DNA from: Haliotis cracherodii
Lineage: Eukaryota
Direction: 5' to 3'
Length of the DNA stretch: 64,000 nt
Assembly: GCF_022045235.1 (NCBI RefSeq)
Contig: NW_027266286.1
Span: 1,191,856-1,255,855, forward strand
The notes beneath the pieces are model-generated. The model was not told where the DNA came from, ran no database searches, and saw nothing but the letters and a program-made list of their open reading frames with translations. The position numbers and the translations under genes are program-made. Of the stretch, positions 15,831 through 61,224 are shown in pieces. The first letter of the stretch is position 1, and the number at the start of each line of letters is the position of its first letter.

Positions 15831-15849
15831 AGATTTAAGTCGTACATGC

Positions 15850-24125: not shown

Positions 24126-24187
24126 TGACAGTGATACAGCTATCCACATACTCTGTGTTCATGTTAAGACGATGTGTGTGTTTCCAG

Positions 24188-25390: not shown

Positions 25391-25446
25391 AATGCCCACG
25401 AGTATGCGGAGCTCCCAGTCCGCCACAATGAGGACCAGATCAACAG
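25391..25446 (+). CDS. SNRNP200: SNRNP200 exon; NAHEYAELPVRHNEDQIN(+ag)
   Basis: Acceptor ttaattcccag|aat, donor ACAG|gtaggt. Matches human [20 protein letters not shown]. Ends in phase 2. Confidence 0.85.
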
Positions 25447-25785
25447 GTAGGTGGCTTGTTTTCAGTCATCTGACATCTTTTTGAAAACTACACGGCCAGT
25501 GGAGCTGAAACGTGAGGCTGTGAAAAGAATGTGAGTTAAGATGTCTTTGACTTTGTTGAACAAGGCCCAGTTCTTCAGGTATGTCAGGAGTGTTGTCAGT
25601 CAGCTCGATGTGCAGGAAGAACCAGGTCTTAGACGTTTGTCACTTGGTGTCACCTGCTGGTATGGTTTTGACGCTGACAAATACAATCATTATCAGGACG
25701 ACTCTGGCACTTAACCCATGATTATCGGACTGCACTGCACAGCAAATGAGGCACTGATTGTTATGTTTGTTATGTTTCCTGGTAG

Positions 25786-25954
25786 CGACCTGGCCCAGAA
25801 GGTCCCCCTGGCGGTGAACCCCCACTCGTACGACTCCGCCCACACCAAAACCCACATCCTGCTGCAGGCTCACTTCTCCCAGATGCAGCTGCCGTCCACC
25901 GACTACTACACCGATACCAAGTCTGTCCTGGACCAGGCTATCAGGATCCTCCAG
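25786..25954 (+). CDS. SNRNP200: SNRNP200 exon; (S)DLAQKVPLAVNPHSYDSAHTKTHILLQAHFSQMQLPSTDYYTDTKSVLDQAIRILQ
   Basis: Acceptor tttcctggtag|c, donor CAG|gtgggt. Strong match to human [54 protein letters not shown]. GC-rich codon usage versus AT-rich flanks. Confidence 0.9.
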
Positions 25955-25959
25955 GTGGG

Positions 25960-28900: not shown

Positions 28901-28990
28901 GCACACCCTAGCACACCCCAGCACACTCCAGCACGCCCTAGCACACCCTAGCACACCCCAGCACACTCCAGTACACCCTAGCAGACTCCA
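25960..28990. repeat. Degenerate (cccctcaaY)n tract, then a 2.6 kb array of 10-bp cctagcacac variants (cctagtacac, cctagcatgc), in the SNRNP200 D-E intron
   Basis: Visible periodicity at 26340-28990. ORFs 25718..26128 and 28868..29101 are artefacts. Confidence 0.85.
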
Positions 28991-29809
28991 GCACGCCCAT
29001 TCCCACTCCACCCACTCTCCACTCCACAACCATTTCTTTCCCTGAGAACCATGTTCAACAAGTGTAGCTCCTTCCAGGCATGTGACACCTTCGGTACACA
29101 CTCGGTATCATCGCTGCCACCAGTGTGGGCGCGGCCATTACAAAAATCTTGAAATTTGGCCTCTAACCCCAAATGTAGTAAAGTTTATACTTTTGTTAAT
29201 GTCTTTGGGAATGCCATCACAGTTAATTTTGAAAAGGTTTACGACTGATCATATTTCCCAGATGAATTTACATTTTTGTTTGATTGATCGGATTGGTTCG
29301 AGATTGCAGACAAACAGAAATTCAACCAACTTCCCCCTTAATATAACAAATGTTATATTTGGGATAACACTTTCTTTGTATAGTACAGATTCTCGTACTT
29401 GTTTAGGTTGAGTTCCACCCACACATGCCAGAGTGAGGCACCTTATCGCCAGCACACAAAGCCACCAATCTAACCCACTCAGCCACCGAGGCTTCCACAA
29501 AATGAAAGTCCAACAACTGGTAGTCTAGATCACGTACTTTGTGTACCCCTCTGAACAAATTTCTGTGCAAATTGGCACAGCTCCCATGGCCGAAAGCTAT
29601 GAATACTCATTGCATTTAGAAAGTGGTCAAATGTACATTCTTATTTTACCAGTTACATGATAGTTGTAATGAAAATAGAAATTCAAACTGGGAAACAAAG
29701 AAAATAATTAAGCTGGGGTAAGAGTATTCAGCGTCACGGCAGTCATCAATTGTTTCTAAACATAACTGTCAGTCGACTGCGAGTTCAACACCAAGCATGG
29801 TTGTAGCCA

Positions 29810-30300
29810 CCTATCGCAGTAGGGAGCTTTGACTGATGGTAGCAATAGTATAGAGAGCACCGCGAACGGGATATATCTGTGAGGAGTTTTGACTGGTGGC
29901 AGCAATAGTATAGAGAGCGCCGCTAAAGGGATATCTGTGAGGAGCTTTGACTGTTGGCAGCAATAGTATAGAGAGCTCCGTGAATGGGATATCTCTGTGA
30001 GGAGCTTTGACTGGTGGCAGCAATAGTATAGAGAGCACAGCGAACGGGATATATCTGTGAGGAGTTTTGACTGGTGGCAGCAATAGTATAGAGAGCGCCG
30101 CGAACGGGATACATCTGTGAGGAGCTTTGACTGGTGGCAGCAATAGTATAGAGAGCTCCGTGAACGGGATATCTCTGTGAGGAGCTTTGACTGGTGGCAG
30201 CAATAGTATAGAGAGCTCCGCGAACGGGATATCTGTGAGGAGCTTTGACTGGTGGCAGCAATAGTATAGAGAGCTCTGTGAATGGGATATCTCTGTGAGG
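29810..30300. repeat. About 59-bp minisatellite gagctttgactggtggcagcaatagtatagagagcNccgYgaacgggatatctctgtgagga (about 8 units)
   Basis: Periodic ORFs on the minus strand (29756..30391 etc.). Confidence 0.8.
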
Positions 30301-30431
30301 AGCTTGCCAGCAAGCAGTCAAAGAGAGACAACTCTTTCAACACTAGGACATGTGCTCCTGTTTTGGTTTGGTTTGGGGTCAGACGCTGCAACAGCTGTAG
30401 TTTCTAATTTGCTTCTAATGTCACCTCACAG

Positions 30432-30583
30432 GCCATGCTGGATGTGTCAGCGGACCAGGGATGGTTGGCGACGTCACTGCGGGTGATTCAACTGATCCAG
30501 ATGGTGGTGCAAGGTCGATGGCTGGAGGACTCGACCCTCCTCACCCTCCCTAACGTCATGCCCTACCATGTGTACTGCTTCAG
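30432..30583 (+). CDS. SNRNP200: SNRNP200 exon; AMLDVSADQGWLATSLRVIQLIQMVVQGRWLEDSTLLTLPNVMPYHVYCF(+ag)
   Basis: Acceptor cacctcacag|gcc, donor CAG|gtacgt. Matches human [50 protein letters not shown]. Phase 0 continuity with the previous exon (..AIRILQ|AM..). Confidence 0.88.
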
Positions 30584-31800
30584 GTACGTAGAGTCCCATC
30601 ATGCACTGCTTCAGGTACGTACAGTCCCATCATGCACTGCTTCAGGTACGTACAGTCCCATCATGCCCTGCTTCAGGTATATACAGTCCCATCATGCACT
30701 GCTTCAGGTACGTACAGTTCCGTCATGCACTGCTTCAGGTATATACAGTCCCATCATGCACTGCTTCAGGTACGTACAGTCCCATCATGCACTGCTTCAG
30801 GTACGTACAGTCCCATCATGCCCTGCGTCAGGTACGTACAGTCCCATCATGCACTGTGTCAGGTATGTATACTCCCATCAGGCACTGTGTCAGTTATGTA
30901 CAGTCCCATCATGCCTAGCGTTAGTTATGTACACTCCCATCATGCACTGTGTCAGTTACATACAGTCCCATCATGCACTGCCTCAGTTATGTACACTCCC
31001 ATCATGCACTGCCTCAGTTATGTACACTCCCATCATGCACTGCCTCAGTTATGTACACTCCCATCATGCACTGCATCAGTTACGTACACTCCCATCATGC
31101 ACTGTGTCAGTTACGTACACTCCCATCATGCACTGCCTCAGTTATGTACACTCCCATCATGCACTGCATCAGTAACGTACACTCCCATCATGCACTGTGT
31201 CAGGTATGTACACTCCCATCATGCCCTGCCTCAGTTATGTACACTCCCATCATGCACTGTGTCAGGTATGTACACTCCTATCATGCACTGCCTCAGTTAT
31301 GTACACTCCCATCATGCACTGCGTCAGTAACGTACACTCCCATCATGCCCTGCCTCAGTTATGTACACTCCCATCATGCACTGCCTCAGTTACGTACAGT
31401 CCCATCATGCTCTGCCTCAGTTATGTACACTCCCATCATGCACTGCGTCAGGTACGTAAGCTCCCATCATGCACTGCCTCAGTTATGTACACTCCCATCA
31501 TGCACTGCCTCAGTTACGTACAGTCCCATCATGCACTGCCTCAGTTATGTACACTCCCATCATGCACTGCCTCAGTTACGTACACTCCCATCATGCACTG
31601 CCTCGGGTACGTACACTCCCATCATGCCCTGCCTCAGTTATGTACACTCCCATCATGCCCTGCCTCAGTTACGTACACTCCCATCATGCACTGCCTCGGG
31701 TACGTACACTCCCATCATGCCCTGCCTCAGTTATGTACACTCCCATCATGCCCTGCCTCAGTTACGTACACTCCCATCATGCACTGCGTCAGGTATGTAC
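30571..31800. repeat. 31-bp minisatellite (about 39 units) derived from the exon E 3' end plus donor (catgcactgcttcag|gtacgtacagtcccat). It fills essentially the whole 1.26 kb E-F intron.
   Basis: Authentic junction is ..tgtactgcttcag|gtacgtagagtcccat. Proximal units keep CAG|GTACGT; most distal units have CAG|TTATGT or CAG|TTACGT (GT lost). Confidence 0.9.
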
Positions 31801-31845
31801 ACTCCTACTGTATAAAGTGACAGACAGGACATGTTGTTTGTTCAG

Positions 31846-31996
31846 GCCCCGAGGTGGAGGCGCCAGGCAGAAAGGTTTCCCAGAGCTGCGAGGACCAATC
31901 GAAACTCTCCCAGAGCTTGTGGCGGTGTGTGAGGGGAAGTTTGAGGCCCTGGCTGCCATGTTGAATGGTGAAATGAACCAGACAGAGATTGATCAG
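31846..31996 (+). CDS. SNRNP200: SNRNP200 exon; (R)PRGGGARQKGFPELRGPIETLPELVAVCEGKFEALAAMLNGEMNQTEIDQ
   Basis: Acceptor tgtttgttcag|g, donor CAG|gtgagg. Starts in phase 1 and ends in phase 0. Corresponds to human ..[32 protein letters not shown]. Confidence 0.8.
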
Positions 31997-32026
31997 GTGA
32001 GGTCTTGTCTTACTCTTGTAGGGGAC

Positions 32027-32150
32027 AGTGAGTGTGTGAGTGAGTGAGTGAGTGAGTGAGTGAGTGAGTGAGCCCAGAAATGGGCTTCACATATTGTACC
32101 CATGTCGGGAATCGAACCCGGGTCTTTGGCATGACGAGCAAACGGTTTAA
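32027..32150 (-). mobile_element. SINE family A copy, 5'-truncated, 30 bp downstream of the SNRNP200 exon F donor
   Basis: (gagt)n tail, then RC of the body (cccagaaatgggcttcacatattgtacccatgtcgggaatcgaacccgggtc..). Lacks the tRNA head. Confidence 0.5.
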
Positions 32151-32341
32151 CTTCTGTGATGTATGTATTAACAGTTGACTTCTTTGATGTATGTATTAAC
32201 AGTTTACTTCTTTGATGTATGTATTAACAGTTTACTTCTTTGATGTATGTATTAACTGTTCACTTCTTTGAAATAAGTGATGATTTTAGAAATCATGTGG
32301 ACAGGTGTTTGTAGCAACAATGGTTATAATTTTCACTTCAG

Positions 32342-32456
32342 GTGTACCTCGTATTGAGTCGTCTGCCACAAATCCAGGTCTCTATCAAGGTCAAGGGATT
32401 CTGGGAAGGGTCAGAGGGGAAGGAGGAGGCGAGAATGGTCAATCTGTCCAACACAG
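32342..32456 (+). CDS. SNRNP200: SNRNP200 exon; VYLVLSRLPQIQVSIKVKGFWEGSEGKEEARMVNLSNT(+g)
   Basis: Acceptor tttcacttcag|gtg, donor ACAG|gtaggg. RLPQIQVSIKV matches human RYPNIELSYEV. The track ORF 32342..32653 reads through into the intronic (GAT)n. Confidence 0.82.
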
Positions 32457-32554
32457 GTAGGGCATGTTTCATTTCGGGGAACTGTTCCATATTCCTTGTT
32501 CCGGTAGCATCCACGCCTACATCCGGATGTCTGGAATTTGTTGATTGTACTACT

Positions 32555-32597
<43 letters not shown>

Positions 32598-32721
32598 TCG
32601 ATGCTGATGATGATGATGTTGATGCTGATGAGGAGGAGGATGAGGAGGAATGAACATAATGGGGATGATGTTGTGACAGTGGCAGTGACGATGTAACTTT
32701 ATGCAGAGATGTTGATAATGA

Positions 32722-33052
32722 GGTGAGGTGAGGTGAAATTGGGTTTACCGTCGTGTCCAAGATTATTGCACTTATATAGCGAGCGTGTGTGCGTGCGTGC
32801 GTGTGGACTGATGCCGATTTATGGGCTATCTCACTGAGATACCATGCAGCAGTTTAACATGAATACCGAACTCTGACACAGTATACTGACTCTGAGCCAA
32901 CCAGTCCTTGTTGTAGCCCCTTAATGCCGAGCGCCAGACAGGGTAACAACAAGTACAATCTTTTAATGTCTTTTGGTATGACATGGCCGGGGATTGAACC
33001 CCGGGTCTTCCGCTCTCCGGACGGACGCTCTACCCGGGAGGCGGTCTCCGTG
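32722..33052 (-). mobile_element. SINE family C copy in the SNRNP200 intron
   Basis: Reverse complement of the family-C consensus. Head lies at 32985-33052, (gt)n at 32783-32806, and 3' end at about 32722. Confidence 0.55.
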
Positions 33053-33316
33053 ATGATGATGGCTTGGTAATGATCACAATGTTGATGACAGTGACATACT
33101 GACAACGATGACAATGTTGATGATGCTGACCATTTTAACGAAGATGACCCTGTTTACGACAGTGATGACCATTTTGACGAAGATGACCCTGTTTACGACA
33201 GTGATGATCATATTAACGATGATGATCATGTTTACGACAGTGATGCCCAACTAACACGAAAATGTTTTAAAAACATCCCTAAAACATTTTACGAAACGTT
33301 TTCTGGGAACATTTGT

Positions 33317-33870
33317 TTATAACATTTCCAGAATGTTTTGAAAACGAACCAGAGTGTTGAAGAATCTCAGCGTGTTGCTGCCAATGTTCACAATGTACAA
33401 CACCAAGTCACTGTTATACAAGATACAAATGATTAGGACAAATAGTCCCAGACTGTACACCCCCCAGGCATGCGCTGCAGAAAACACAATACCAGTGACC
33501 GACATGGTGACCCATGCCAAGGACCGACATGGTGACCCATGCCAAGGACCGACATGGTGACCCATGCCAAGAACCGACATGGTGTCACATGCCAATGACC
33601 GACATGGTAACCCATGCCAATGACCGACATGGTAACCCATGCCAAGGACCGACATGGTGACCCATGCCAAGGACCGACATGGTGACACATGCCAAGGACC
33701 GACATGGTGACACATGCCAATGACCGACATGGTGACCCATGCCAAGGACCGACATGGTGACCCATGCCAAGGACCGACATGGTGACCCATGCCAAGGACC
33801 GACATGGTAACCCACGCCATGGTAACCCAACAAGACAGGCATAAGACGATAGGGCAGGCATACAACACAT
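33317..33870. repeat. 25-bp minisatellite gacatggtgacccatgccaaggacc (about 20 units) inside the GIY-YIG element
   Basis: Periodic 25-aa ORFs on the minus strand (33317..33868 etc.). Confidence 0.8.
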
Positions 33871-33938
33871 ACAGAAATAATTAAGTATTGTAGTGGCAGT
33901 AAAATGTACAATACATATAATTGTATAAAATAATTCAA

Positions 33939-34325
33939 TTATTTCACACCATTTAATTTTGGTTTGAAAGTATTACTAAAATAAATTTCTTTTATCTTTC
34001 TCAGTGCATCATTGTCACATTTGTAAAACGGGAATATCACAAAATGTGGTGTTTTATTCCCGGCACACTGACTGAGTGGGATACACCAACAAGAGAGGTC
34101 CCTTATTTGTTGTCGGTGGACCCTCACTCTCGCTCTTAGGGTGTTCCCTGTCTGTCCAATGTATTCGGCCTTGCATCCAGCACATTGTAGGACATAAATC
34201 AAGTTTTTCGAAGCACAATTCATATTTTCATGGACATAGAAAGTTTTTCCGTCTTTGAATGTAAAAGAACAACATTGTAAAACATGAGGGCAAGTACCAC
34301 GATTTGGTCTGTTACACTTTTGCAC
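33939..34325 (-). pseudogene. GIY-YIG nuclease domain ORF fragment (..CPHVLQCC..KTFYVHENMNCASKNLIYVLQCAGCKAEYIGQTGNTLRARVRVHRQQI..)
   Basis: Conserved spacing of the GIY..YIG..R..H motif, with an upstream Cys cluster as in Penelope-like endonuclease domains. Upstream ORF pieces (34891..35139, 35155..35403) are in different frames. Confidence 0.55.
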
Positions 34326-36619
34326 TGTTTTACATTCTTGTTTTCCATTTGAGAAAGAAGCCCTAGTAAGAATCTGTTTCAGATTTTGACTGTCATTTAC
34401 TTTTAATAAGTTTATTTTGTGATATTTTTTGTTTTAGTTCTTTACACTTATTTAAGGAATACAGTGATTCCCGAACACTTCGAAATATTTTGGGGAGTTT
34501 TGGGGATTAAAGGTTGTAACAAAAGGGAGAACACTCTCGTTAGGTTTATCTTTAGGTTTTAAAAGATCACAACGGTTTTGTGATTTAGCCTTGTTTATTG
34601 CGTCTTCCACTATTTTTCTAGGGTAGTTTCTTTCTAATAGTGATTCCCTCAGTTCATCGAGTTTGTGTTGTGCACTATTGTGCAGATTTTACGTGCTAAT
34701 GAGTAAGGGACATTGTTTATGGTTTGGGCTTCTTTGGCGACCTTGGCCTTGCTGTCTCCCCTGGTTGGAAGATCTGCCTTCAGTGATGTTGATTGTTCAG
34801 GGGGGGTCTTCATCCCCGGGACGTTGTACTTCTTCTGAATGTACAGTTCTGTGTTGGAGGACCTCTGAGAGTCAGTTTCACAGAATGTGATTAGGGTGGT
34901 TTTATTTTTGTCACGTCAGCATAAGATTTCCCCTCAGTTCTTAGATTTTTTAGGAAGTGATTTTCTTCTTTTGAGTTGACGTTTAAGGTATAGATTGTAT
35001 GCCGTTTCTTGTTTTTCTCTAATCGCTTGTTAGATATTTCTTCTTCAATCTGACATACTCTTTCCCATTCTTTCTGCAACAATTCAAGTACTTTTCCCTT
35101 TGTTGTTTTCACAAGTTCTTCAATGATTTCTGCATTCATTTCTTTGAATTTCAGTTAATGGGACTCCACACGCAGTCGTAAAAGTTCAATTACACTTTTC
35201 ATGGAATCTATGGCATGTTTTTCTCTAAGGACACGCTGTGTGTCGGGTTCCCCCTTCATAGGCTTGATTTGGAATTTAGGAGGTATGATCCGTTTTGCCC
35301 CTAAGAGCCATTTTAGATACATGTCTGCTAGATTGGAATTGTTTAAATAACCCCAGTATGCTTGTTTCCATTTCGTTAGAATGGAACTGCGTACTTGATT
35401 CATGGATACTTGTATCTCAGATGCTTTTCTTTCTGTTATTATTTTTACTGAGTCTTCAATAAGGTTTGCTTGAAGAATGGCTTCATTAGCCGAGACATAA
35501 GTGTGAAGCTAATTAAAGGTCTTCATTGATGAAATAATAATAATGTTCTGTACAGTATTCAAATATCAAGTGGTGTGCAAGTCCATGCGCGGCTACATGT
35601 ATTTTCATGGTTGTTTACACGACGGCCTTTATGCACTGTGAACTTCATTTCAATGCAACATTCAATAATGCAACTATTACTAACAATGGATTGCAACGAC
35701 AGATCAAGTTTGAAAAGAGCTTGGTATCAAACAAACTGTGACATTAACATTATGAGGTCGGCCCGCGAGAAACACCTGGTTGTATTCGCCAACTTGAGTA
35801 CAGCAGTGGCCCTCTGTATTTCTACCCAAGATGATCTGCCACAAGCTGACTTCTGGAATACATGTTACGCTCTGCATTCAACACGGGTAAAAGTCATTCG
35901 TTGCTGATGTGAATTTGATGATTGTTCAAGTACTGTACTATTTTCCGCATATGCAGATTGCAGATTGAAGTTATCACTTCGATCACTGCTTCATGTGTAG
36001 GTTGGTGTCTGGTGCAGTTGTTAGGCTTTCGGGAATGTTATCGTCTAACCCCCTCAGCCACTGAGGCTAGTCATGAAAAATAATTAAATGTGAGAGAATG
36101 TGTCTTGTACCATAGATCTATATTTATTCACTTCTCAACGGTCTCTCTCACGCCCCCGCAAAATATGCGCAACAATGTAATATCCTGTGACACTATCTGT
36201 GATCAGCAACAAACAAATCCTGTGAAGTTTTGTCTTACTCATGTCTGCTATATTTTCTTTAGACATTTAGTGTACAGAAAATGTTCTATTACTGCATTAC
36301 CAATCGGGTAACAATTTGAATAATTATAAAACATTTACACCTTATTCGGATGATTTTACATGTGTGGACACAATGTATTTGAAACATGATAACATTTCAT
36401 TAAATATGTTCTGGCAAAACATTTCTGCAACGTGCTGAAAACATTGTAACAACATGTTATGAAATAGTTTTGACTATGTTATAGCATCATGTTCTTCAAC
36501 AACATTTTGAAAATATTTCAATAACATTTTGAATACATTTATAACACATTAATAAAATGTTTTGACAAAAATCGTTTTGAAAAACTACAATGAAACCTTT
36601 TGAAATTGTTTTGAAAATG

Positions 36620-37260
36620 TTATGTGTTAGCTGGGTGATCATGATGATGATGACAATGATGATGTTGACGATGATGACCCTGTTTATGACAGTGATGATC
36701 ATGTTGATGATGATGATGATGATGTTGACGATGATGACCCTGTTTATGACAGTGATGATCATGTTGATGATAATGATCATGATCATGTTGACGATGATGA
36801 CCCTGTTTATGACAGTGATGATCATGTTGATGATGTTGATGATGATCATGTTGACGATAATGACCCTGTTTATGCAAGTGATGATCATGTTGATGATGAT
36901 GATGATGATCATCATGTTGACGATGATGACCCTGTTTATGACAGTGATGATCATGTTGATGATGATGATCATCATCATGTTGACGATGATGACCCTGTTT
37001 ATGACAGTGATCATGTTGATGATGATGATGATGATCATGTTGACGATGATGACCCTGTTTATGACAGTGATGATCATGTTGATGATGATGATCATCATCA
37101 TGTTGACGATGATGACCCTGTTTATGACAGTGATGATCATGTTGATGATGATGATGATGATGATGATGTTGACGATGATGACCCTGTTTATGACAGTGAT
37201 GATCATGTTGATGATGATGACAATAATGATGATGATGATGATGATGATGATGATCTGTTG
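36620..37260. repeat. About 60-bp array of (GAT)n + gttgacgatgatgaccctgtttatgacagtgatgatcatgtt, running to 3 bp before the exon H acceptor
   Basis: Right-hand terminal repeat of the GIY-YIG element. The poly-His minus-strand ORF 36620..37348 is an artefact. Confidence 0.85.
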
Positions 37261-37263
37261 CAG

Positions 37264-37355
37264 GTGGGCGGCGGCGAGATGCGGACTGGATCAAGGTCCA
37301 TGCTGACCAGGAGTATGTGCTGCAGGTCGACCTGGCCCGAGTTAACAAGACCCGG
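37264..37355 (+). CDS. SNRNP200: SNRNP200 exon; (G)GRRRDADWIKVHADQEYVLQVDLARVNKTR
   Basis: Acceptor ctgttgcag|gt lies directly after an intronic (GAT)n array with a weak pyrimidine tract. Donor CGG|gtgagt. Phase is consistent with both flanking exons. Corresponds to human GGPVVVLVQLEREEEV. Confidence 0.75.
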
Positions 37356-38195
37356 GTGAGTCCTGTACTACATCAAGTAGCCCAGTGGCGTAGACGTCCA
37401 TTATGGAGCAGATGAAGATGTCAAATACATCGTCATGAACATGCTTTTGTCAGCATCAGCCTGTTCATTGAGACATGTTCATTGAGACATGTTCATTGAG
37501 ACACTGGGAGAAGCTGCCTCCACAGGGTTCCTTGTCAAAATCTGTTATTCCAACAGATGCTGTAAATCTTGAAATTATTGCATCTCCAAATTAATACGAC
37601 TGCTGACCCCTAGCAAAAAATGCGACTCTAAATCAATGCGACTCCTCCAACCCCATTCCCATGATACATACATATTTACCTTAATCCAATCAAACGGCAA
37701 ACAGCAAACAGCACTGTATAGAGCACTTCCATAAAACAATAAACACTGTTTTCCTAAAAACAACACACAGTTTATATGTTTACTCTGTTGACTGGCATTA
37801 AAGAAGTTCAAAGGCCATAAAATAATTGAACCAACAGTTCACTGATTGATATGCGGAGACGGTGTTAATCAGCTTGACACGAGTGGATACAACTCTTGAC
37901 CCCAGCACTGATAACTCACCAGATGCCTGTTGTTTAATTCCTATTCTTTGAATGACATTGTTTGGACTTGTTACAACTGCTGCTCAATAAACAGTGTTTG
38001 CGTATATATTCAAGTCGGAATTTCCACTATCCAAATTAACTATGCGAAGTTAATTAATGGGAGCAAAAACCACATTTTTTTAAAATTAATTCACGCTCGC
38101 GTTAATTTCAAGATTTACAGTAACTGATAATGTTGGACAGCGTAAAACCCAACTAACTCACTCTCTCATTAAAAGCCAATAATTTGTTACTTCAG

Positions 38196-38519
38196 AAATA
38201 CGACACCAAGGCCCACAGTCCACGGTTCCCGAAGCCGAAGGACGAAGGCTGGATGCTGGTTGTGGGCGAGGTGGAGACCAAGGAACTCATCGCCCTCAAG
38301 CGGATGGGGTACGTGCGGAGTCGCTCCAAGGCCCAGCTCGCTCTGTACACCCCGGAGACGGTGGGGCGTGTCATCTACACCCTCTACCTGATGAGCGACG
38401 CCTACCTTGGTCTTGACCAGCAATACGACATCTGTCTGGACGTTGTGCCATCCAGCATCGAGACACAGGTCAACACGGAGCTCAAGGAGGAACTAGATGG
38501 GCTTGATTTTGATAGCTGA
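38196..38519 (+). CDS. SNRNP200: SNRNP200 terminal coding exon; KYDTKAHSPRFPKPKDEGWMLVVGEVETKELIALKRMGYVRSRSKAQLALYTPETVGRVIYTLYLMSDAYLGLDQQYDICLDVVPSSIETQVNTELKEELDGLDFDS*
   Basis: Acceptor ttgttacttcag|aaa; TGA stop at 38517-38519. Matches the human C-terminus [51 protein letters not shown]. 3'UTR follows; a candidate AATAAA sits at 39038-39043 (low confidence). Confidence 0.9.
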   Translation, partial: KYDTKAHSPRFPKPKDEGWMLVVGEVETKELIALKRMGYVRSRSKAQLALYTPETVGRVIYTLYLMSDAYLGLDQQYDICLDVVPSSIETQVNTELKEELDGLDFDS

Positions 38520-40504: not shown

Positions 40505-40685
40505 TTCTGGTCCTGGAGCCAAGATTAGACTGTGAGGAGGGTGAAGGAGTTAGTCAGTCCAGTGATCAACCGTCCACGTTGATGGGGTACAATGGCGCAA
40601 TCAAGCAAGTCACCATGTCTGACCACCATTTGGGTGCCTCTTACGACCGTCATAGGTTGCTGGGGACCAATTCTAACCCGGAATC

Positions 40686-40830
40686 GGGGCGGTGGGGTAG
40701 TCTAGTATTTAAAGCATTCACTCGTCACGCCAAAGACCTGGGTTCTGTTCCCCACATGGGTACAATGTGTGAAGCCCATTTCTGGTGTCCCCCACCATGA
40801 CATTGCTAAAAGCGGCATAAAATCAGACTC
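40686..40830 (+). mobile_element. SINE family A copy immediately 5' of the 24-bp mega-array
   Basis: cggggcggtggggtagtctagtatttaaagc..ctgggttctgttcccc..ggtacaatgtgtgaagcccatttctggtgtccccc..attgctaaaagcggcataaaatc. Confidence 0.55.
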
Positions 40831-40894
40831 GCTATATGACAAACCTGGAATATATCCATTTCATGAGTTTACTGAGGCACTCAAAAGCATATTT

Positions 40895-43800
40895 AAGTAT
40901 CCCCTCTACAATTAAGTGTGCCCACAAGCCTACAATTAACTGTGCCCACAAGACTACAATTAAGTGTGCCCACAAGACTACAATTAAGTGTGCCCACAAG
41001 CCTACAATTAAGTGTGCCCACAAGCCTACAATTAAGTGTGCCCACAAGCCAACAATTAAGTGTGCCCACAAGACTACAATTAAGTGTGCCCACAAGCCAA
41101 CAATTAAGTGTGCCCACAAGCCAACAATTAAGTGTGCCCACAAGACTACAATTAAGTGTGCCCACAAGCCAACAATTAAGTGTGCCCACAAGCCAACAAT
41201 TAAGTGTGCCCACAAGCCAACAATTAAGTGTGCCCACAAGCCTACAATTAAGTGTGACCACAAGACTACAATTAAGTGTGCCCACAAGACTACAATTAAG
41301 TGTGCCCACAAGACTACAATTAAGTGTGCCCACAAGCCTACACTTAAGTGTGCCCACAAGCCTACAATTAAGTGTGCCCACAAGCCAACAATTAAGTGTG
41401 CCCACAAGCAAACAATTAAGTGTGCCCACAAGCCAACAATTAAGTGTGCCCACAAGCCAACAATTAAGTGTGCCCACAAGACTACAATTAAGTGTGCCCA
41501 CAAGCCTACAATTAAGTGTGCCCACAAGCCAACAATTAAGTGTGCCCACAAGACTACAATTAAGTGTGCCCACAAGCCAACAATTAAGTGTGCCCACAAG
41601 CCAACAATTAAGTGTGCCCACAAGCCTACAATTAAGTGTGCCCACAAGCCTACAATTAAGTGTGCCCACAAGACTACAATTAAGTGTGCCCACAAGCCTA
41701 CAATTAAGTGTGCCCACAAGCCTACAATTAAGTGTGCCCACAAGCCTACACTTAAGTGTGCCCACAAGACTACAATTAAGTGTGCCCACAAGCCAACAAT
41801 TAAGTGTGCCCACAAGCCAACAATTAAGTGTGCCCACAAGCCAACAATTAAGTGTGCCCACAAGACTACAATTAAGTGTGCCCACAAGCCAACAATTAAG
41901 TGTGCCCACAAGCCAACAATTAAGTGTGCCCACAAGACTACAATTAAGTGTGCCCACAAGCCAACAATTAAGTGTGCCCACAAGCCAACAATTAAGTGTG
42001 CCCACAAGCCAACAATTAAGTGTGCCCACAAGCCTACAATTAAGTGTGCCCACAAGCCTACAATTAAGTGTGCCCACAAGCCAACAATTAAGTGTGCCCA
42101 CAAGACTACAATTAAGTGTGCCCACAAGACTATGATTAAGTGTGCCCACAAGCCTACAATTAAGTGTGCCCACAAGCCTACAATTAAGTGTGCCCACAAG
42201 CCTACAATTAAGTGTGCCCACAAGACTACAATTAAGTGTGCCCACAAGCCTTCAATTAAGTGTGCCCACAAGCCTACAATTAAGTGTGCCCACAAGACTA
42301 CAATTAAGTGTGCCCACAAGACTACAATTAAGTGTGCCCACAAGCCTACACTTAAGTGTGCCTACAAGCCTACAATTAAGTGTGCCCACAAGCCTACAAT
42401 TAAGTGTGCCCACAAGCCTACAATTAAGTGTGCCCACAAGCCTTCAATTAAGTGTGCCCACAAGCCTACAATTAAGTGTGCCCACAAGACTACAATTAAG
42501 TGTGCCCACAAGACTACAATTAAGTGTGCCCACAAGCCTACAATTAAGTGTGCCCACAAGGCTACAATTAAGTGTGCCAACAAGACTATGATTAAGTGTG
42601 CCCACAAGACTACAATTAAGTGTGCCCTCTACAATTAAGTGTGCCCACAAGACTACAATTAAGTGTGCCCACAAGACTACAATTAAGTGTGCCCACAAGA
42701 CTACAATTAAGTGTGCCCACAAGACTACAATTAAGTGTGCCCACAAGCCTACAATTACGTGTGCCCACAAGACTACAATTAAGTGTGCCCACAAGCCAAC
42801 AATTAAGTGTGCCCACAAGCCTACAATTAAGTGTGCCCACAAGCCTACAATTAAGTGTGCCCACAAGACTACAATTAAGTGTGCCCACAAGACTACAATT
42901 AAGTGTGCCCACAAGACTATGATTAAGTGTGCCCACAAGACTATGATTAAGTGTGCCCACAAGCCTACAATTAGGTGTGCCCACAAGACTACAATTAAGT
43001 GTGCCCACAAGACTATGATTAAGTGTGCCCACAAGCCTACAATTAAGTGTGCCCACAAGACTACAATTAAGTGTGCCCACAAGACTATGATTAAGTGTGC
43101 CCACAAGACTACAATTAAGTGTGCCCACAAGCTTACAATTAAGTGTGCCCACAAGCCTACAATTAAGTGTGCCCACAAGCCAACAATTAAGTGTGCCCAC
43201 AAGCCAACAATTAAGTGTGCCAACAAGCCTACAATTAAGTGTGCCCACAAGCCAACAATTAAGTGTGCCCACAAGACTACAATTAAGTGTGCCCACAAGC
43301 CAACAATTAAGTGTGCCCACAAGCCAACAATTAAGTGTGCCCACAAGCCAACAATTAAGTGTGCCCACAAGATTATGATTAAGTGTGCCCACAAGCCAAC
43401 AATTAAGTGTGACCACAAGACTACAATTAAGTGTGCCCACAAGCCAACAATTAAGTGTGACCACAAGACTACAATTAAGTGTGCCCACAAGCCAACAATT
43501 AAGTGTGACCACAAGACTACAATTAAGTGTGCCCACAAGCCAACAATTAAGTGTGCCCACAAGCCTACAATTAAGTGTGCCCACAAGCCTACAATTAAGT
43601 GTGCCCACAAGCCTACAATTAAGTGTGCCCACAAGCCAACAATTAAGTGTGACCACAAGACTACAATTAAGTGTGCCCACAAGACTACAATTAAGTGTGC
43701 CCACAAGACTATGATTAAGTGTGCCCACAAGACTATGATTAAGTGTGCCCACAAGCCTACAATTAAGTGTGCCCACAAGACTACAATTAAGTGTGCCCAC

Positions 43801-45810
43801 AAGCCAACAATTAAGTGTGCCCACAAGACTACAATTAAGTGTGCCCACAAGCCTACAATTAAGTGTGCCCACAAGCCTACAATTAAGTGTGCCCACAAGC
43901 CTACAATTAAGTGTGCCCACAAGCCAACAATTAAGTGTGCCCACAAGACTACGATTAAGTGTGCCCACAAGCCTACAATTAAGTGTGCCCACAAGACTAC
44001 AATTAAGTGTGCCCACAAGCCAACAATTAAGTGTGACCACAAGACTACAATTAAGTGTGCCCACAAGCCAACAATTAAGTGTGACCACAAGACTACAATT
44101 AAGTGTGCCCACAAGCCAACAATTAAGTGTGCCCACAAGACTATGATTAAGTGTGCCCACAAGCCTACAATTAAGTGTGCCCACAAGACTACAATTAAGT
44201 GTGCCCACAAGCCAACAATTAAGTGTGACCACAAGACTACAATTAAGTGTGCCCACAAGCCTACAATTAAGTGTGACCACAAGACTACAATTAAGTGTGC
44301 CCACAAGCCAACAATTAAGTGTGCCCACAAGCCTACAATTAAGTGTGCCCACAAGACTACAATTAAGTGTGCCCACAAGCCTACAATTAAGTGTGCCCAC
44401 AAGACTACAATTAAGTGTGCCCACAAGACTATGATTAAGTGTGCCCACAAGACTATGATTAAGTGTGCCCACAAGCCTACAATTAAGTGTGCCCACAAGA
44501 CTACAATTAAGTGTGCCCACAAGCCAACAATTAAGTGTGCCCACAAGACTACAATTAAGTGTGCCCACAAGCCTACAATTAAGTGTGCCCACAAGACTAC
44601 AATTAAGTGTGCCCACAAGACTATGATTAAGTGTGCCCACAAGACTACAATTAAGTGTGCCCACAAGCCTACAATTAAGTGTGCCCACAAGACTACAATT
44701 AAGTGTGCCCACAAGCCAACAATTAAGTGTGCCCACAAGCCAACAATTAAGTGTGCCCACAAGACTATGATTAAGTGTGCCCACAAGCCTACAATTAAGT
44801 GTGCCCACAAGCCAACAATTAAGTGTGCCCACAAGACTATGATTAAGTGTGCCCACAAGCCAACAATTAAGTGTGCCCACAAGCCAACAATTAAGTGTGC
44901 CCACAAGACTACGATTAAGTGTGCCCACAAGCCTACAATTAAGTGTGCCCACAAGACTACAATTAAGTGTGCCCACAAGCCAACAATTAAGTGTGACCAC
45001 AAGACTACAATTAAGTGTGCCCACAAGCCAACAATTAAGTGTGACCACAAGACTACAATTAAGTGTGCCCACAAGCCAACAATTAAGTGTGCCCACAAGA
45101 CTATGATTAAGTGTGCCCACAAGCCTACAATTAAGTGTGCCCACAAGACTACAATTAAGTGTGCCCACAAGCCAACAATTAAGTGTGCCCACAAGCCAAC
45201 AATTAAATGTGCCCACAAGACTATGATTAAGTGTGCCCACAAGCCAACAATTAAGTGTGCCCACAAGACTATGATTAAGTGTGCCCACAAGCCTACAATT
45301 AAGTGTGCCCACAAGACTACAATTAAGTGTGCCCACAAGCCTACAATTAAGTGTGCCCACAAGACTACAATTAAGTGTGCCCACAAGACTACAATTAAGT
45401 GTGCCCTCTACAATTAAGTGTGCCCACAAGACTACAATTAAGTGTGCCCACAAGCCTACAATTAAGTGTGCCCACAAGACTATGATTAAGTGTGCCCACA
45501 AGCCAACAATTAAGTGTGCCCACAAGACTACAATTAAGCGTGCCCACAAGCCTACAATTAAGTGTGCCCTCTACAATTAAGTGTGCCCACAAGCCTACAA
45601 TTAAGTGTGCCCACAAGCCTACAATTAAGTGTGCCCACAAGACTATGATTAAGTGTGCCCACAAGCCAACAATTAAGTGTGCCCACAAGCCAACAATTAA
45701 GCGTGCCCACAAGCCTACAATTAAGTGTGCCCTCTACAATTAAGTGTGCCCACAAGCCTACAATTAAGCGTGCCCACAAGCCTACAATTAAGTGTGCCCA
45801 CAAGAAGAAT
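40895..45810. repeat. 24-bp minisatellite acaattaagtgtgcccacaagMMt (about 200 units, 4.9 kb) with higher-order punctuation by gtgccctctacaattaag
   Basis: Punctuation units at about 40895, 42625, 45404, 45567 and 45731. Flanked by SINE-A (5') and SINE-D (3'). All six frames are open (900+ aa artefactual ORFs on both strands). Confidence 0.9.
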
Positions 45811-45892: not shown

Positions 45893-45995
45893 CTTGCTTG
45901 TTTGTTGTTTAACACCGCACTCGGCAATATTCCAGCTATATGACGGTGGTCTGTAAATAATCGAGTCTGGGCCAGACAATCCAGTGATTGACTAC
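45893..45995 (-). mobile_element. SINE-like family D (core ..gcggacttgtagtcaatcactggattgtctggcccagactcgattatttacagaccaccgtcatat.. + shared tail module)
   Basis: Copies at about 290-415(+) and 46760-46880(-); the last is continuous with the 54-bp array. Shares the ..ctggaatattgcYaaRagcggYgttaaac tail with families A and B. Confidence 0.4.
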
Positions 45996-46435
45996 AAGTC
46001 CGCTTGAAAACATCACTACTTCAAAGTCAATACTCATTAAAGAAAACCATATTTGAAAAGATTACTTTTATTCTATTAAATATCCAAAAAGTTAAAAAAA
46101 TATAATTAGCTAAACATGAAATATCTAGATAAATAACTGATTCAAACAGTAGAACATCACAGTGAATATTATCTAACACATTCATCAAACAATGCTGGCC
46201 TCACTCACATTCAGGTAGCAGCCACAAGTTGTCACAAAATTGAAAAAACAAAACAGGACTACAAAAACAACATATATCTGTATTGTCTACAAGTAACAAA
46301 AGCACTACAAAATGTTCACTCATCAGGAACGCTGTGAAGTGTCATCCATCTAGAAATCGTCACACTTGAGTTCAACTGACATCGCAAATAAACAGAATTT
46401 TTTTGTGAATGTTTTTTTCTCTTCCCTTCAATTTT

Positions 46436-46590
46436 AGGGTTGGTTGGGTAGCCTAGTGGTTAAAGCGTTCGCTCGTTGGTTCGATTCCTGACATGGGTAC
46501 AATGTGTGAAGCCCATTTCTGGTGTCCCCTGCCATGATATTGCTGGAATATTGCTAAAAGCGGCGTAAAACCATACTCACTCCCTCACTC
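46436..46590 (+). mobile_element. SINE family A copy (internal deletion)
   Basis: gggttggttgggtagcctagtggttaaagcgttcgctcgttggttcgattcctgacatgggtacaatgtgtgaagcc..ttgctaaaagcggcgtaaaaccatactcactccctcactc. Confidence 0.55.
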
Positions 46591-46874
46591 TTCAAATTTA
46601 CCGTCTTTTCTGTCGCCTGCCTTCTATTGGAAGTCGGCCATCACTTGTCCTTACTGCAACAATTACTGCAGTTAGATATCTTAACATGTACTGTCCATTC
46701 TCTTTATGACTGACTGAAATAGTTCTGTGGAAAATTATTTGACCATTATGACACTAGTTGTTTGTTTGCTGTTTAACTTTCCAATATTCAAGCTACATGA
46801 TGGTGGTCTGTAAGCAGCTGAGTCTGGACCAGACAATCCAGTGATTGATATTGTGATCAACATCCCACAATGAC

Positions 46875-47450
46875 TTGACCTCCCGATCCGCTATGTCATC
46901 TCTAACGCCCAGTGTAGGTTGCTGTGACCTGACAACCCGATCCACTAAGTCGTCTCTAACGCCCAGCGTAGGTTGCTGTGACTTGACAACCCGATCCACT
47001 AAGTCGTCTCTTACACTCAGCGTAGGTTGCTGTGACCTGACAACCCGATCCACTAAGTCGTCTTTTATGCCCAGCGTAGGTTGCTGTGACCTGACAACCC
47101 GATCCACTAAGTCGTCTCTTATGCCCAGCGTAGGTTGCTGTGACCTGACAACCCGATCCACTAAGTCGTCTCTTACGCCAAGCGTAGGTTGCTGTGACCT
47201 GACAACCCAATCCACTAAGTCGTCTCTTACACCCAGCGTAGGTTGCTGTGACTTGACAACCCGATCCACTAAGTCGTCTCTTACACCCAGCGTAGGTTGC
47301 TGTGACCTAACAACCCGATCCACTAAGTCGTCTCTAACGCCCAGCGTAGGTTGCTGTGACCTGACAACCTGACAACCCGATCCACTAAGTCGTCTCTTAC
47401 ACCCAGCGTAGGTTGCTGGGACCTGACAACCCGATCCACTAAGTCGTTGC
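46875..47450. repeat. 54-bp minisatellite continuous with the 3' portion of a SINE-D copy
   Basis: Unit ..cccagcgtaggttgctgtgacctgacaacccgatccactaagtcgtctcttaca. The first unit is part of the SINE at 46760-46880. Confidence 0.8.
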
Positions 47451-54129: not shown

Positions 54130-54792
54130 TCAACATCTACAGTATGCCTGCCAAAAAGCCAGTTCACCTACCTTTCGCTGCAGCATGAGAAGCAGGTCAA
54201 TATCAGCAGCAGTGATGTTCCCCCTGCCCTCCCGGAGACAGGGCACCGGCACTTCGGGACCAATCTTCGTCACCATCGTCGTCAGTTCCATCGCTCCACT
54301 TGGACTCCCTTCACTCACAGCGCAGGAGGACAGTGTTTCATACACGTCTATATGTTCAAATTCAGGAAGTTTCCCTTCTAGACTTGCTTTTTTGCATTTT
54401 TTTTTTCTACGATAGGCTGCCATCGATTCCTCAGATATGTCAAGATAGGTGGCCTTCTTGAAAAGCGCAGCTGGTGCAGAATCTTCTTGTATTTCAAGTT
54501 GACGGACAGTTACTTTCTTCTTCAGGGCTGCCCTAATCATCATTGGCGTCGGAGCCTTGTCAAATCGGAGTGAGAATTTTTCGTTTGATTGCTGCACTGC
54601 TGGGGTCAAATCTCTGTCCGGAGACACCCTCGTGTCAGCAGAACGATACCTACTGTGGAATGATAAGGAATGTGAACTAATATAAGGAATGTAAGGAACA
54701 CCAGAAGCCTGGAACACCATATCAGACCAGAAAGGGCAGTGAAGACAAATGAAACAACAGAAGACTAAACAGACATGCTGGGTGGGTGTCAA
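54130..54792 (-). CDS. Coding-like ORF (220 aa) of unknown function; its 5' 220 bp is duplicated at 56085-56317
   Basis: Non-periodic open frame (..KKATYLDISEESMAAYRRKKKCKK..GNITAADIDLLLMLQRK..). May be an exon or a TE ORF. No splice sites resolved. Confidence 0.2.
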   Translation of the reverse strand: MTPTQHVCLVFCCFICLHCPFWSDMVFQASGVPYIPYISSHSLSFHSRYRSADTRVSPDRDLTPAVQQSNEKFSLRFDKAPTPMMIRAALKKKVTVRQLEIQEDSAPAALFKKATYLDISEESMAAYRRKKKCKKASLEGKLPEFEHIDVYETLSSCAVSEGSPSGAMELTTMVTKIGPEVPVPCLREGRGNITAADIDLLLMLQRKVGELAFWQAYCRC

Positions 54793-54829: not shown

Positions 54830-55960
54830 GGTGTACCTGGGGGGTGTACCTGGGTGTGTACCTAGGGGATGTCAGTGTGTACCTGGGGGGTGTACCTGGG
54901 TGTGTACCTAGGGGATGTCAGTGTGTACCTGCGGGATGTCATTGTGTACCTGGGGGGTGTATCTGCGGGATGTCAGTGTGTACCTCGGGGATGTCAGTGT
55001 GTACCTGGGGGATGTCAGTGTGTACCTGGGGGATGTCAGTGTGTACCTGGGGGATGTCAGTGTGTACCTGGGGGATGTCAGTGTGTACCTGGGGGATGTC
55101 AGTGTGTACCTGGGGGATGTCAATGTGTACCTGGGGGATGTCAGTGTGTACCTGGGGGATGTCAGTGTGTACCTGGGGGATGTCAGTGTGTACCTGGGGG
55201 ATGTCAGTGTGTACCTGGAGGATGTCAGTGTGTACCTGGGGGATGTCAGTGTGTACCTCGGGGATGTCAGTGTGTACCTGGGGGATGTCAGTGTGTACCT
55301 GGGGGATGTCAGTGTGTACCTGGGGGATGTCAGTGTGTACCTCGGGGATGTCAGTGTGTACCTGCGGGATGTCAGTGTGTACCTGGGGGATGTCAGTGTG
55401 TACCTGGGGGATGTCAGTGTGTACCTCGGGGATGTCAGTGTGTACCTGGGGGATGTCAGTGTGTACCTGGGGGATGTCAGTGTGTACTTGGGGGATGTCA
55501 GTGTGTACCTGGGGGATGTCAGTGTGTACCTAGGGGATGTCGGTGTGTACCTGGGGGATGTCAGTGTGTACCTGGGAGATGTCTTGTCAGTGTGTACCTG
55601 GGGGATATCAGTGTGTACCTGGGGGATGTCAGTGTGTACCTGGGGGATGTCAGTGTGTACCTGGGGGTTGTCAGTGTGTACCTGGGGGTTGTCAGTGTGT
55701 ACCTGGGGGGTGTACCTGGGGGATGTCAGTGTGTACCTGGGGGATGTCAGTGTGTACCTGCGGGATGTCAGTGTGTACCTGGGGGATGTCAGTGTGTACC
55801 TGGGGGATGTCAGTGTGTACCTGGGGGATGTCAGTGTGTACCTGGGGGATGTCAGTGTGTACCTGCGGGATGTCAGTGTGTACCTGGGGGATGTCAGTGT
55901 GTACCTGCGGGATGTCAGTGTGTACCTGGGGGATGTCAGTGTGTACCTGGTACGTTCTGT
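54830..55960. repeat. 21-bp minisatellite gggggatgtcagtgtgtacct (about 52 units), sitting between two copies of a duplicated about 220-bp segment (54575-54792 and 56085-56317)
   Basis: Flank cgtttgattgctgcactRctggggtcaaatctctgtccggagacaccctcgtgtcagcagaacgatacctactgtggaatgataaggaatgtgaa.. is present on both sides. Confidence 0.85.
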
Positions 55961-56489
55961 TTCTTTCTTCTTCGGGGCAACCTTGCATTGGAATCCACGT
56001 GGGCTTGAAGCCTGTCTCCTAATCACTGGCTCCCTAGCCTTGTCATATCGGACTCCTCTCCATCCTCCTTTCGGAACCGAGGCTTTTTCGTTTGATTGCT
56101 GCACTACTGGGGTCAAATCTCTGTCCGGAGACACCCTCGTGTCAGCAGAACGATACCTACTGTGGAATGATAAGGAATGTGAAGTAATATAAGGAATGTA
56201 AGGAAAACCAGAAGCCTGGAACACCATATCAGACCAGAAAGGGCAGTGAAGACAAATGAAACAACAGAAGACTAAACAGACCTGCTGACAGTTCATTACA
56301 TATATACTGAACAACAAAAATTACTGTGACATTTAACAAGATTTATTGCAAAGTTATGTTTTTTACCAAATCTGAAACAATTAGGGTTTGCAACAGATAA
56401 AAGACTCCTGTAAGTGTTCAAATGGTTTAATTTGCCATACTGACTTCAGAAAATGTGTGATTTCATGAAAAATACATGAACATGGCAAA

Positions 56490-61093: not shown

Positions 61094-61224
61094 AAAGGAT
61101 TAACCAGTGTGTTCGGTTGTTACCGAAAAATCTACACACTCGGCAAAGCCTCGTTCTAATCATGACAGATCAATCACTCGTGTGTAGATTTTTCGGTAAC
61201 AACCGAACACCGTGGTTAATCCTC
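61094..61224. repeat. Perfect 43-bp inverted repeat (ggattaaccagtgtgttcggttgttaccgaaaaatctacacac / RC) around a 45-bp loop, at the 3' edge of the Tc1 N-terminal fragment
   Basis: 61094-61136 is the exact reverse complement of 61182-61224. Confidence 0.8.

Follow-up and report, generated by a model that had tools for sequence, protein, structure and literature searches.

What kind of sequence is a 4.9-kb run of 24-bp units lying downstream of a gene, and how could it have arisen? We examined such an array in a 64-kb window, by which we mean the whole stretch of DNA that was analysed; the host is a lophotrochozoan and probably a mollusc. The array is very probably a neutral, non-coding and locus-specific minisatellite in intergenic sequence 3′ of the ASCC3 orthologue, where 'locus-specific' refers to the 64-kb window and to DNA collections that hold few eukaryotic genomes.

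To define the array, we combined TRF, a parse of the sequence into units and a comparison of core matches with shuffled sequence, which gave one feature; local alignment added a possible extension at its left edge:

40905–45804, + strand: 24-bp minisatellite array, consensus unit CCTACAATTAAGTGTGCCCACAAG
40882–40904, + strand: possible degenerate edge unit, CAAAAGCATATTTAAGTATCCCC

TRF reported a single array at 40906–45804 with a period of 24, 205.0 copies, 92% matches and a score of 8160. The unit parse resolved its 4900 bp into 201 units of 24 bp and four truncated units of 19 bp, arranged head to tail without any foreign insert and with clean boundaries to unique flanks. A 21-nt core, ACAATTAAGTGTGCCCACAAG, had 205 matches in the window when up to three mismatches were allowed, whereas dinucleotide shuffles had none; among the matches listed, all were on the + strand and within the array. 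These three approaches agree with the count of about 200 units made in a first-pass annotation of the locus. The array has a GC content of 43.9% (window, 43.5%), an A+T content of 56% that equals the window background, and a GC skew of −0.22. Its − strand carries one GGG per unit, so canonical quadruplex potential is absent from the sequence, and folding of four-unit stretches of both strands revealed nothing unusual (z-scores of −0.6 to −1.7). The left-edge sequence aligned to the unit with a local score of 10, which 57 of 500 shuffles matched, and lies in register with a 19-bp-type unit. It leads into a junction between CCC and TCTACAATT identical to that at the internal truncated units, and the short motif CCCTCTACAATTAAG is present at 40902. 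Because it is in register at the boundary, this sequence may be a degenerate unit, a reading that is suggestive only; at the right edge, an alignment search beyond the end of the array found no degenerate units.

The gene upstream of the array ends in the following segment:

38157–38519, + strand: open segment with the last coding exon of the ASCC3 orthologue, stop codon TGA at 38517–38519

This neighbour had initially been named SNRNP200. Its C-terminal Sec63 cassette matched human ASCC3 (8alz_B) with 361 bits (E = 3e-107) and SNRNP200 with 186 bits (E = 8e-54), and its matches in the protein database are named ASCC3, with best identities of 57–77%. By these comparisons the gene is the ASCC3 orthologue and not its paralogue SNRNP200. 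The array begins 2.4 kb downstream of the gene's end, and the four AATAAA hexamers between the stop codon and the array (39038, 39147, 39315 and 40223) count in favour of an intergenic minisatellite.

Long open reading frames cross the array, and we therefore considered whether it encodes an octapeptide-repeat protein, (KCAHKPTI)n, perhaps folded as a β-solenoid. As the first-pass annotation had noted, both strands are open for more than 900 codons; the ORFs measure 600 and 939 aa (+ strand) and 980 and 977 aa (− strand). These arise because the unit length is a multiple of three and the unit is free of stops in four of the six frames; the proportion of arrays in the window with a period divisible by three (10 of 28) is that expected by chance. 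At each 19-bp unit the frame moves by +1 and the + strand ORFs stop, the + ORF ending in CALYN, so that no single frame spans the array. In Pfam searches, array peptides matched Gp5_trimer_C (98 bits, E = 4e-28) and Bflower_2 (57 bits), scores that would ordinarily favour a coding function, but four column-permuted control peptides scored up to 108 and 107 bits, respectively, against the same families. Because the controls equal or beat the real scores, the matches reflect an 8-residue periodicity rather than homology; periodicity alone can give a periodic ORF a strong Pfam E-value. One of the two − strand ORFs scanned matched a further family, DUF5862. A search of the four open frames, as one chimeric query, against 5.8 billion proteins yielded no homologue at E ≤ 0.01 among 8000 word-sharing candidates. 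Only one of the four common variant changes, read from the sequence, is synonymous in the KCAHKPTI frame, and the sole upstream ATG sits in the unique flank just beyond the end of a SINE. We give the coding reading next to no chance. The non-coding reading follows from the four open frames, the frame-shifting 19-bp units, the lack of a protein match and the reproduction of the Pfam matches by controls, and it upholds the earlier opinion that coding was unlikely.

Variation among the units is concentrated at five positions, namely 1, 3, 5/6 and 17. It comprises the CCT/CCA/ACT and ACA/ATG/ACACTT alternatives that had been recognized at first reading, to which we add a GCC to GAC change. At the other positions at most 3 of 200 units vary; 12 positions are invariant, and 19 of 24 are nearly so. 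The array contains 26 unit types, five of them common, in an aperiodic map. The variants are interspersed in a non-random order, as had been proposed: neighbouring units are associated (chi-square p = 3e-5), composition differs among the quartiles of the array (p = 6.5e-5), with the right half and right end more varied, and the longest repeated run of units, 12, exceeds the maximum of 8 found in 300 zero-order shuffles. The unit following a GAC-variant unit was an ACT unit in 11 of 11 cases, and the resulting dimer is itself repeated:

43399–43542, + strand: 48-bp dimer in three copies, a GAC-variant unit and then an ACT unit (unit parse)

The dimer occurs again at units 114, 130–133, 138–141 and 170–173. 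Lag autocorrelation revealed no array-wide higher-order period; its peaks, at 8, 15, 17, 32, 34 and 40 units, are weak, and none dominates.

Larger blocks of units have also been duplicated within the array, as suspected from the outset, and are listed here together with the first of the truncated units:

42609–42627, + strand: truncated 19-bp unit number 1, ACTACAATTAAGTGTGCCC, which lacks ACAAG; the next unit begins TCT
43903–44227, + strand: copy 1 of an exact 325-bp internal duplication, containing the 12-unit block CKBAEAEACDBA
44863–45187, + strand: copy 2 of the same duplication, 960 bp (40 units) downstream of copy 1
45388–45804, + strand: right-end higher-order repeat of about 2.55 copies (45388–45550, 45551–45713 and 45714–45804)

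The best self-alignment of the unit map scored 24, whereas zero-order shuffles reached at most 17 and first-order Markov shuffles at most 23, and a further block pair matches 19 units with 17. The right-end repeat is seven units long (6 × 24 + 19 = 163 bp); a 19-bp unit opens each copy, and the copies are 98.2% and 98.9% identical (unit map JFABDCW / LFBBDCX / LFY.). These results refine what the first-pass annotation had called higher-order punctuation, in which a distinct unit recurred near 40895, 42625 and 45404 and then three times at a spacing of about 164 bp. The exact motif GTGCCCTCTACAATTAAG occurs at four sites, 42622, 45401, 45564 and 45727, while the sequence near 40895, GTATCCCCTCTACAATTAAG, is only a degenerate version of it. 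The three evenly spaced right-end copies are real, at a spacing of 163 bp, and the copy near 45404 is one of the three. All four 19-bp units represent one variant with a 5-bp deletion, which block duplication carried to these sites. No array-wide period exists, and the term punctuation overstates what the array contains.

How might such a structure have formed? We suggest that the array grew, and continues to turn over, by replication slippage and misaligned intra-allelic exchange. Either unequal sister-chromatid exchange or gene conversion by synthesis-dependent strand annealing could be responsible, with between 1 and about 40 units duplicated or deleted as a block. New unit types would then come from point mutation, for example along a likely path from ACA through ACG to ATG, the second step of which would be a CpG deamination. 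The exact 325-bp duplicate and the 98–99% identical 163-bp repeats point to recent turnover and to nothing more. They are also features that mis-assembly could produce, and 4.9 kb of 92%-identical 24-bp units is difficult to assemble; copy number or internal order might therefore be partly an artefact of expansion, collapse or mis-joining. We consider this quite improbable, as the unit map, made up of 26 unit types, lacks periodicity and changes in composition from region to region instead of reiterating one consensus, the array meets its unique flanks at clean boundaries, and 27 other arrays in the window have similar properties. Taking the array as a genuine minisatellite, hypervariability in copy number is plausible for 205 homogeneous copies, and the locus could provide a polymorphic marker for its species. 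If it does vary, the variant-repeat map would allow a fine analysis of mutation mechanism, as in human minisatellites.

Both flanks of the array contain a SINE:

40690–40836, + strand: tRNA-related SINE copy in the left flank (aligned with the copy at 46438–46595)
46438–46595, + strand: SINE copy of the same family and orientation in the right flank (BLAST and alignment)

The SINE flanks that had been taken as a hint of hypervariability are thus present, but they are uninformative on variability, as BLAST matches to the family occur at about ten places in the window. Rfam recognized tRNA heads at two of these, and the Rfam and tRNA scans gave nothing else than two weak tRNA-like heads of SINEs, both distant from the array. 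The left copy stops 68 bp short of the array, which is therefore not an expanded SINE tail.

A rival view takes the array for the tandem-repeat core of a non-autonomous mobile element of the Helentron/Helitron type, or as one locus of a dispersed satellite family. Tandem repeats of molluscs often reside on Helentron/Helitron elements, which scatter them as short arrays (PMC7492417, PMC8268682). The array resembles the oyster arrays of this type (Cg_HINE; PMC7492417, PMC8268682) in lying in gene-rich, non-heterochromatic DNA beside genes and transposable elements, and in a genome, probably molluscan, with an unusual wealth of such arrays; unlike them, it has no element-like flanks, terminal repeats or further copies in the 64-kb window. 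Its flanks are rich in transposable elements, and the neighbouring 54-bp array at 46871–47447 is derived from an interspersed SINE-like element. By contrast, the 24-bp unit derives from neither flanking SINE family. Oyster central-repeat modules look unlike 205 copies of a 24-bp unit. Comparison of the unique flanks (68 bp on the left, 75 bp on the right) revealed no significant inverted repeat (score 10, equalled in 265 of 1000 shuffles) or direct repeat (score 8, equalled in 744 of 1000), and the window showed neither a terminal inverted repeat nor a target-site duplication. Once the array had been masked, BLAST of the window with the consensus unit gave no match longer than 10 bp, and exact scans for the unit in metagenome, prokaryote-genome and viral contig collections gave no copy. 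Neither the unit nor the SINE sequences turned up in a full-text search of papers, and a search of the literature on tandem-repeat-rich mollusc genomes found no directly relevant paper. From the window and these collections, we regard a mobile or dispersed origin as quite unlikely. The designation satellite-like is not borne out by what was seen, a single locus whose unit occurred nowhere else in the window and in none of the three DNA collections.

We also weighed a functional, non-coding role, in which the array would act as a dense set of transcription-factor sites, as an ASCC3 3′-end boundary element or as a source of small RNAs. Each unit contains the sequence TTAAGTG, which presumably fits the NK2-class homeodomain core TNAAGTG, as well as a near-palindrome, ACAATTAAGTGT, and the near invariance of 19 of the 24 positions could be read as constraint. 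Array turnover, however, yields homogeneity without selection, and some factor motif matches any 24-mer. The single-strand folds are ordinary, as their z-scores indicate, and the 27 unrelated arrays nearby suggest that a neutral process acts across the region. Neither of two orthologous ASCC3 3′ flanks from other species (L001, and L002 from Patella vulgata) contains the unit, but both species are too distant for this to be decisive; these flanks have the last exon or nothing in common with the present one. We infer, from an absence of evidence, that the array has no sequence-specific function, and the functional reading seems to us extremely unlikely. A lineage-specific element at the 3′ end of ASCC3, for example about 200 phased putative homeodomain-type sites, with each TTAAGTG inside a near-palindrome, serving as a boundary or factor sink, or a transcribed small-RNA source, is very improbable; were a functional reading true, the internal block structure would reflect selection on copy number.

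The minisatellite reading can be compared with well-studied loci. Minisatellites are defined by a repeat unit of about 9–100 bp (PMC2599865), and here the unit is 24 bp, the array of 205 copies is uninterrupted and the variant repeats are interspersed. The human Y-chromosomal minisatellite MSY1 (DYF155S1) has a unit of about 25 bp in tens to more than about 100 copies, and is not GC-rich (75% A+T). Its alleles are told apart by a few variants of one unit that differ in base substitutions and lie in a few simple blocks; its mutation has been attributed to intra-allelic misalignment of sister chromatids and to synthesis-dependent strand annealing (PMC2599865). The present array is like MSY1 in its short unit, its lack of GC richness, its few substitution variants and the mechanism we propose. 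It differs in its 56% A+T, in variants that are interspersed with duplicated multi-unit blocks, in its four 19-bp length-variant units and in its ordinary folding. Classical hypervariable human loci of the MS32 and CEB1 type have a high GC content, with one strand rich in G, and inter-allelic conversion beside meiotic hotspots drives their mutation. The array shares with them a unit within 9–100 bp, a length of kilobases and highly interspersed variant repeats that can be written as a minisatellite variant-repeat map, and its more varied right half and end resemble their polarity; at 44% GC it falls outside the GC-rich, strand-asymmetric subclass. Its multi-unit blocks, the 163-bp repeat and the 48-bp dimers, were duplicated as units, as in primate alpha satellite. 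Alpha satellite extends over hundreds of kilobases, whereas the array is 4.9 kb long, has no array-wide period and gives no indication of a centromeric setting. This is another minisatellite locus, and an ordinary one in kind.

The window contains 28 unrelated arrays of 300 bp or more, many of them in ASCC3 introns, and the present one is just the largest, which makes it less distinctive. No motif or consistent skew was found in common between it and the other 27, so that array formation is a general property of the region. Together, tandem repeats make up 47% of the 64-kb window, and the notable feature is therefore regional: nearly half of a genic window, and not one array, is minisatellite.

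Tandem Repeats Finder reported a single array at 40906-45804 with a period of 24 bp, 205.0 copies, 92% matches, no indels and a score of 8160. The 21-nt invariant core ACAATTAAGTGTGCCCACAAG, searched with up to three mismatches, likewise matched 205 times; every match listed is a + strand one within the array. Shuffling the window with dinucleotide content preserved left no match. Parsed in the phase MMT-ACAATTAAGTGTGCCCACAAG, the array (40905-45804) resolves into 205 units, 201 of them 24 bp and four 19 bp long, which sum to exactly 4900 bp. The three approaches thus bear out the 24-bp array described in the first-pass annotation. Variation between units is concentrated at five positions, 1 (C or A), 3 (T or A), 5 and 6 (CA or TG) and 17 (C or A), and each of the other 19 positions varies in no more than 3 of 200 units, with 12 invariant. 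Five unit types account for 174 of the 205 units.

Principal unit types of the 24-bp array
Type A, ACT, 57 units
Type B, CCT, 46 units
Type C, CCA, 43 units
Type D, ACT with ATG, 19 units
Type E, CCA with GAC, 9 units

The variants are arranged non-randomly, as had been proposed from inspection: successive units are not independent of each other (chi-square 49.2, 16 d.f., p = 3e-5) and the composition of the array differs between quartiles (p = 6.5e-5). The first quarter holds only types A, B and C, ATG units appear first at unit 51, GAC/ACT dimers occur between units 104 and 173, and truncated units cluster at the right end. All 11 GAC-variant units are followed by an ACT unit, forming 48-bp dimers that occur two or three in a row. 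The longest exactly repeated run of units is 12 (CKBAEAEACDBA, each letter a variant type), a length that exceeds the maximum of 8 seen in 300 zero-order shuffles and that was reached in only 1 of 300 first-order Markov simulations. In nucleotides, the run corresponds to two identical 325-bp segments, 43903-44227 and 44863-45187, offset by 960 bp. This duplication can be extended, with differences, to about 21 units; together with a second duplicated block, of 19 versus 17 units, it shows that the earlier reading of block duplications within the array was correct.

The same annotation had described a higher-order punctuation by a distinct recurring unit, and this was only partly upheld. The 19-bp unit, which lacks ACAAG and is followed by a unit beginning TCT, carries the exact motif GTGCCCTCTACAATTAAG at 42622, 45401, 45564 and 45727. 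The last three sites are spaced by 163 bp (6 x 24 + 19), each heading a 7-unit higher-order repeat present in about 2.55 copies that are 98.2% and 98.9% identical. The left array boundary, GTATCCCC|TCTACAATTAAG, is only a degenerate form of the 19-bp-unit junction; an in-register degenerate unit may occupy 40882-40904, where the alignment score alone is not significant, being equalled in 57 of 500 shuffles. The right boundary is abrupt. Lag autocorrelation of the unit map gave modest peaks only, at lags of 8, 15, 17, 32, 34 and 40 units, and no higher-order period spanning the entire array, which is not a higher-order-repeat satellite. A single deletion variant, spread by block duplication, describes the punctuation better.

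The array fits the structural definition of a minisatellite in the size of its unit, its overall size and its variant-repeat map, and its anatomy matches the minisatellite pattern: a highly homogeneous unit with a few variants at high frequency, recurring rare variants, some of which sit in copied blocks, nested duplications of 2 to about 40 units, and greater variety at the right end. With 43.9% GC, in line with the 43.5% background of the window, it falls outside the classical GC-rich subclass. In this respect it resembles the human minisatellite MSY1, which has a 25-bp, non-GC-rich unit and exemplifies the turnover documented at human loci, namely intra-allelic misalignment, through unequal sister-chromatid exchange or synthesis-dependent strand annealing, together with slippage (PMC2599865). 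The same combination of misalignment and slippage would account for turnover of the 24-bp array. The rare ACG units, two copies that both lie within the duplicated block, could represent an intermediate in a path ACA -> ACG -> ATG, the second step of which would be CpG deamination. Hairpins and quadruplexes need not be invoked, since single-strand folds of the array are ordinary (z-scores -0.6 to -1.7) and each unit has only one G-triplet. Within the window, the array lacks the features of Helentron/Helitron-borne arrays of oysters (PMC7492417, PMC8268682). No relatives were detected in protein, metagenome, prokaryote-genome or viral contig collections, or by full-text literature search. The array is a genuine but ordinary non-coding minisatellite of a well-known kind.

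Both flanks are mosaics of interspersed elements. Copies of a tRNA-related SINE family lie at 40690-40836 and 46438-46595 in the same orientation and are about 89% identical; BLAST with one of them found about ten matching places on both strands of the window (for example, 13035-13147 and 9553-9713), and the heads of two copies reach the Rfam tRNA gathering score. The aligned copy terminates in an ACTC-rich tail, and ACTC-type microsatellites adjoin other copies. Expansion of such a tail was considered as an origin for the array and rejected, because the left SINE stops 68 bp short of the array start. The unit has no match longer than 10 bp elsewhere in the window, and comparison of the unique flanks with each other showed no significant repeat, inverted or direct. 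A neighbouring array of 54 bp x 10.5 (46871-47447) begins within a SINE-like element (region 46770-47447; other fragments at 45900-46000 and 40560-40680) and so, unlike the 24-bp array, is an expansion of an internal transposable-element segment.

The gene upstream had been labelled SNRNP200. Its C-terminal exons lie in five open segments.

C-terminal exons of the upstream gene
24119-24340, + strand, open segment
25718-26128, + strand, open segment
30435-31175, + strand, open segment
31469-32047, + strand, open segment
38157-38519, + strand, open segment ending in the stop codon (38517-38519)

Concatenated, these exons matched human ASCC3 (8alz_B) with 361 bits (E = 3e-107) and SNRNP200 with only 186 bits (E = 8e-54), and the database relatives in molluscs, Lingula and annelids carry the name ASCC3. 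At 57-77% identity, these do not include the species itself; the host is a lophotrochozoan and probably a mollusc. The label SNRNP200 is therefore replaced: the gene (24119-38519, +) is the ASCC3 orthologue. Four AATAAA hexamers (39038, 39147, 39315 and 40223) separate its stop codon from the array, which, 2.4 kb past that stop, is thus probably intergenic. A 128-aa ORF in an ASCC3 intron (33939-34325, -) shows weak similarity to GIY-YIG nucleases (21.8 bits; cut-off 22.6) and may derive from a Penelope-like retroelement, as a remnant.

The unit is open in four of six frames, giving the long ORFs noticed earlier on both strands (600 and 939 aa, +; 980 and 977 aa, -). The view that coding is unlikely gained support. 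In the second + frame the ATG variant introduces TGA, and each 19-bp unit shifts the frame, so that the KCAHKPTI frame terminates as ...CALYN* at each. The four open frames were also joined into one chimeric query; of the 8000 candidate proteins that share words with it, drawn from 5.8 billion sequences, none matched at E <= 0.01. Pfam matched a + strand frame (scan of 40836-42635) to Gp5_trimer_C (98 bits, E = 4e-28) and Bflower_2 (57 bits), and one - strand frame to DUF5862. Four control peptides in which the eight columns of the octapeptide were permuted matched the same families equally well or better (Gp5_trimer_C up to 108 bits, Bflower_2 up to 107), which indicates that the matches reflect 8-residue periodicity rather than homology. 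Long, perfectly periodic octapeptide ORFs, even permuted, thus far exceed the gathering thresholds of these beta-helix families, which makes Pfam matches of this kind unreliable for translated tandem repeats. The long ORFs are a by-product of the unit; periods divisible by three occur in 10 of the 28 arrays in the window, the chance proportion.

The main point missed at first reading, and one more notable than the 24-bp array, is the regional repeat density. TRF assigns 30,055 bp of the window (47%) to tandem repeats. Separate arrays of 300 bp or longer number 28, most of them with periods between 16 and 61 bp, and many lie inside ASCC3 introns. None is larger than the 24-bp array, which is about twice as large as the second in rank.

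Examples of the other arrays in the window
53 bp x 38, at 4618
22 bp x 72, at 9144
59 bp x 35, at 15846
2.6-kb CACCCTAGCA, at 26386
31 bp x 40, at 30574
45 bp x 27, at 51356

No motif common to the consensus units of the 28 arrays was found, and their GC and AT skews have no consistent direction. By comparison, tandem repeats make up only 14% of the ASCC3 3' region in one other species (L001, an ENA assembly) and 17% in another (L002, Patella vulgata). Both the 24-bp unit and the SINE are absent from these two regions, which at such evolutionary distance shows only that the array is lineage-specific.

Two further ORFs (54130-54792 and 54908-56317, both -) flank or overlap a 21-bp array at 54957-55950, around which a local segmental duplication is suggested by their near-identical N-terminal stretches of about 70 aa (LVFCCFICLHCPFWSDMVFQASG...); the first ORF matched no Pfam family. 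The ORF at 61216-61602 (-) matches HTH_Tnp_Tc3_2 (E = 5e-9), the helix-turn-helix domain of Tc1/mariner-type transposases, and is a DNA-transposon remnant.
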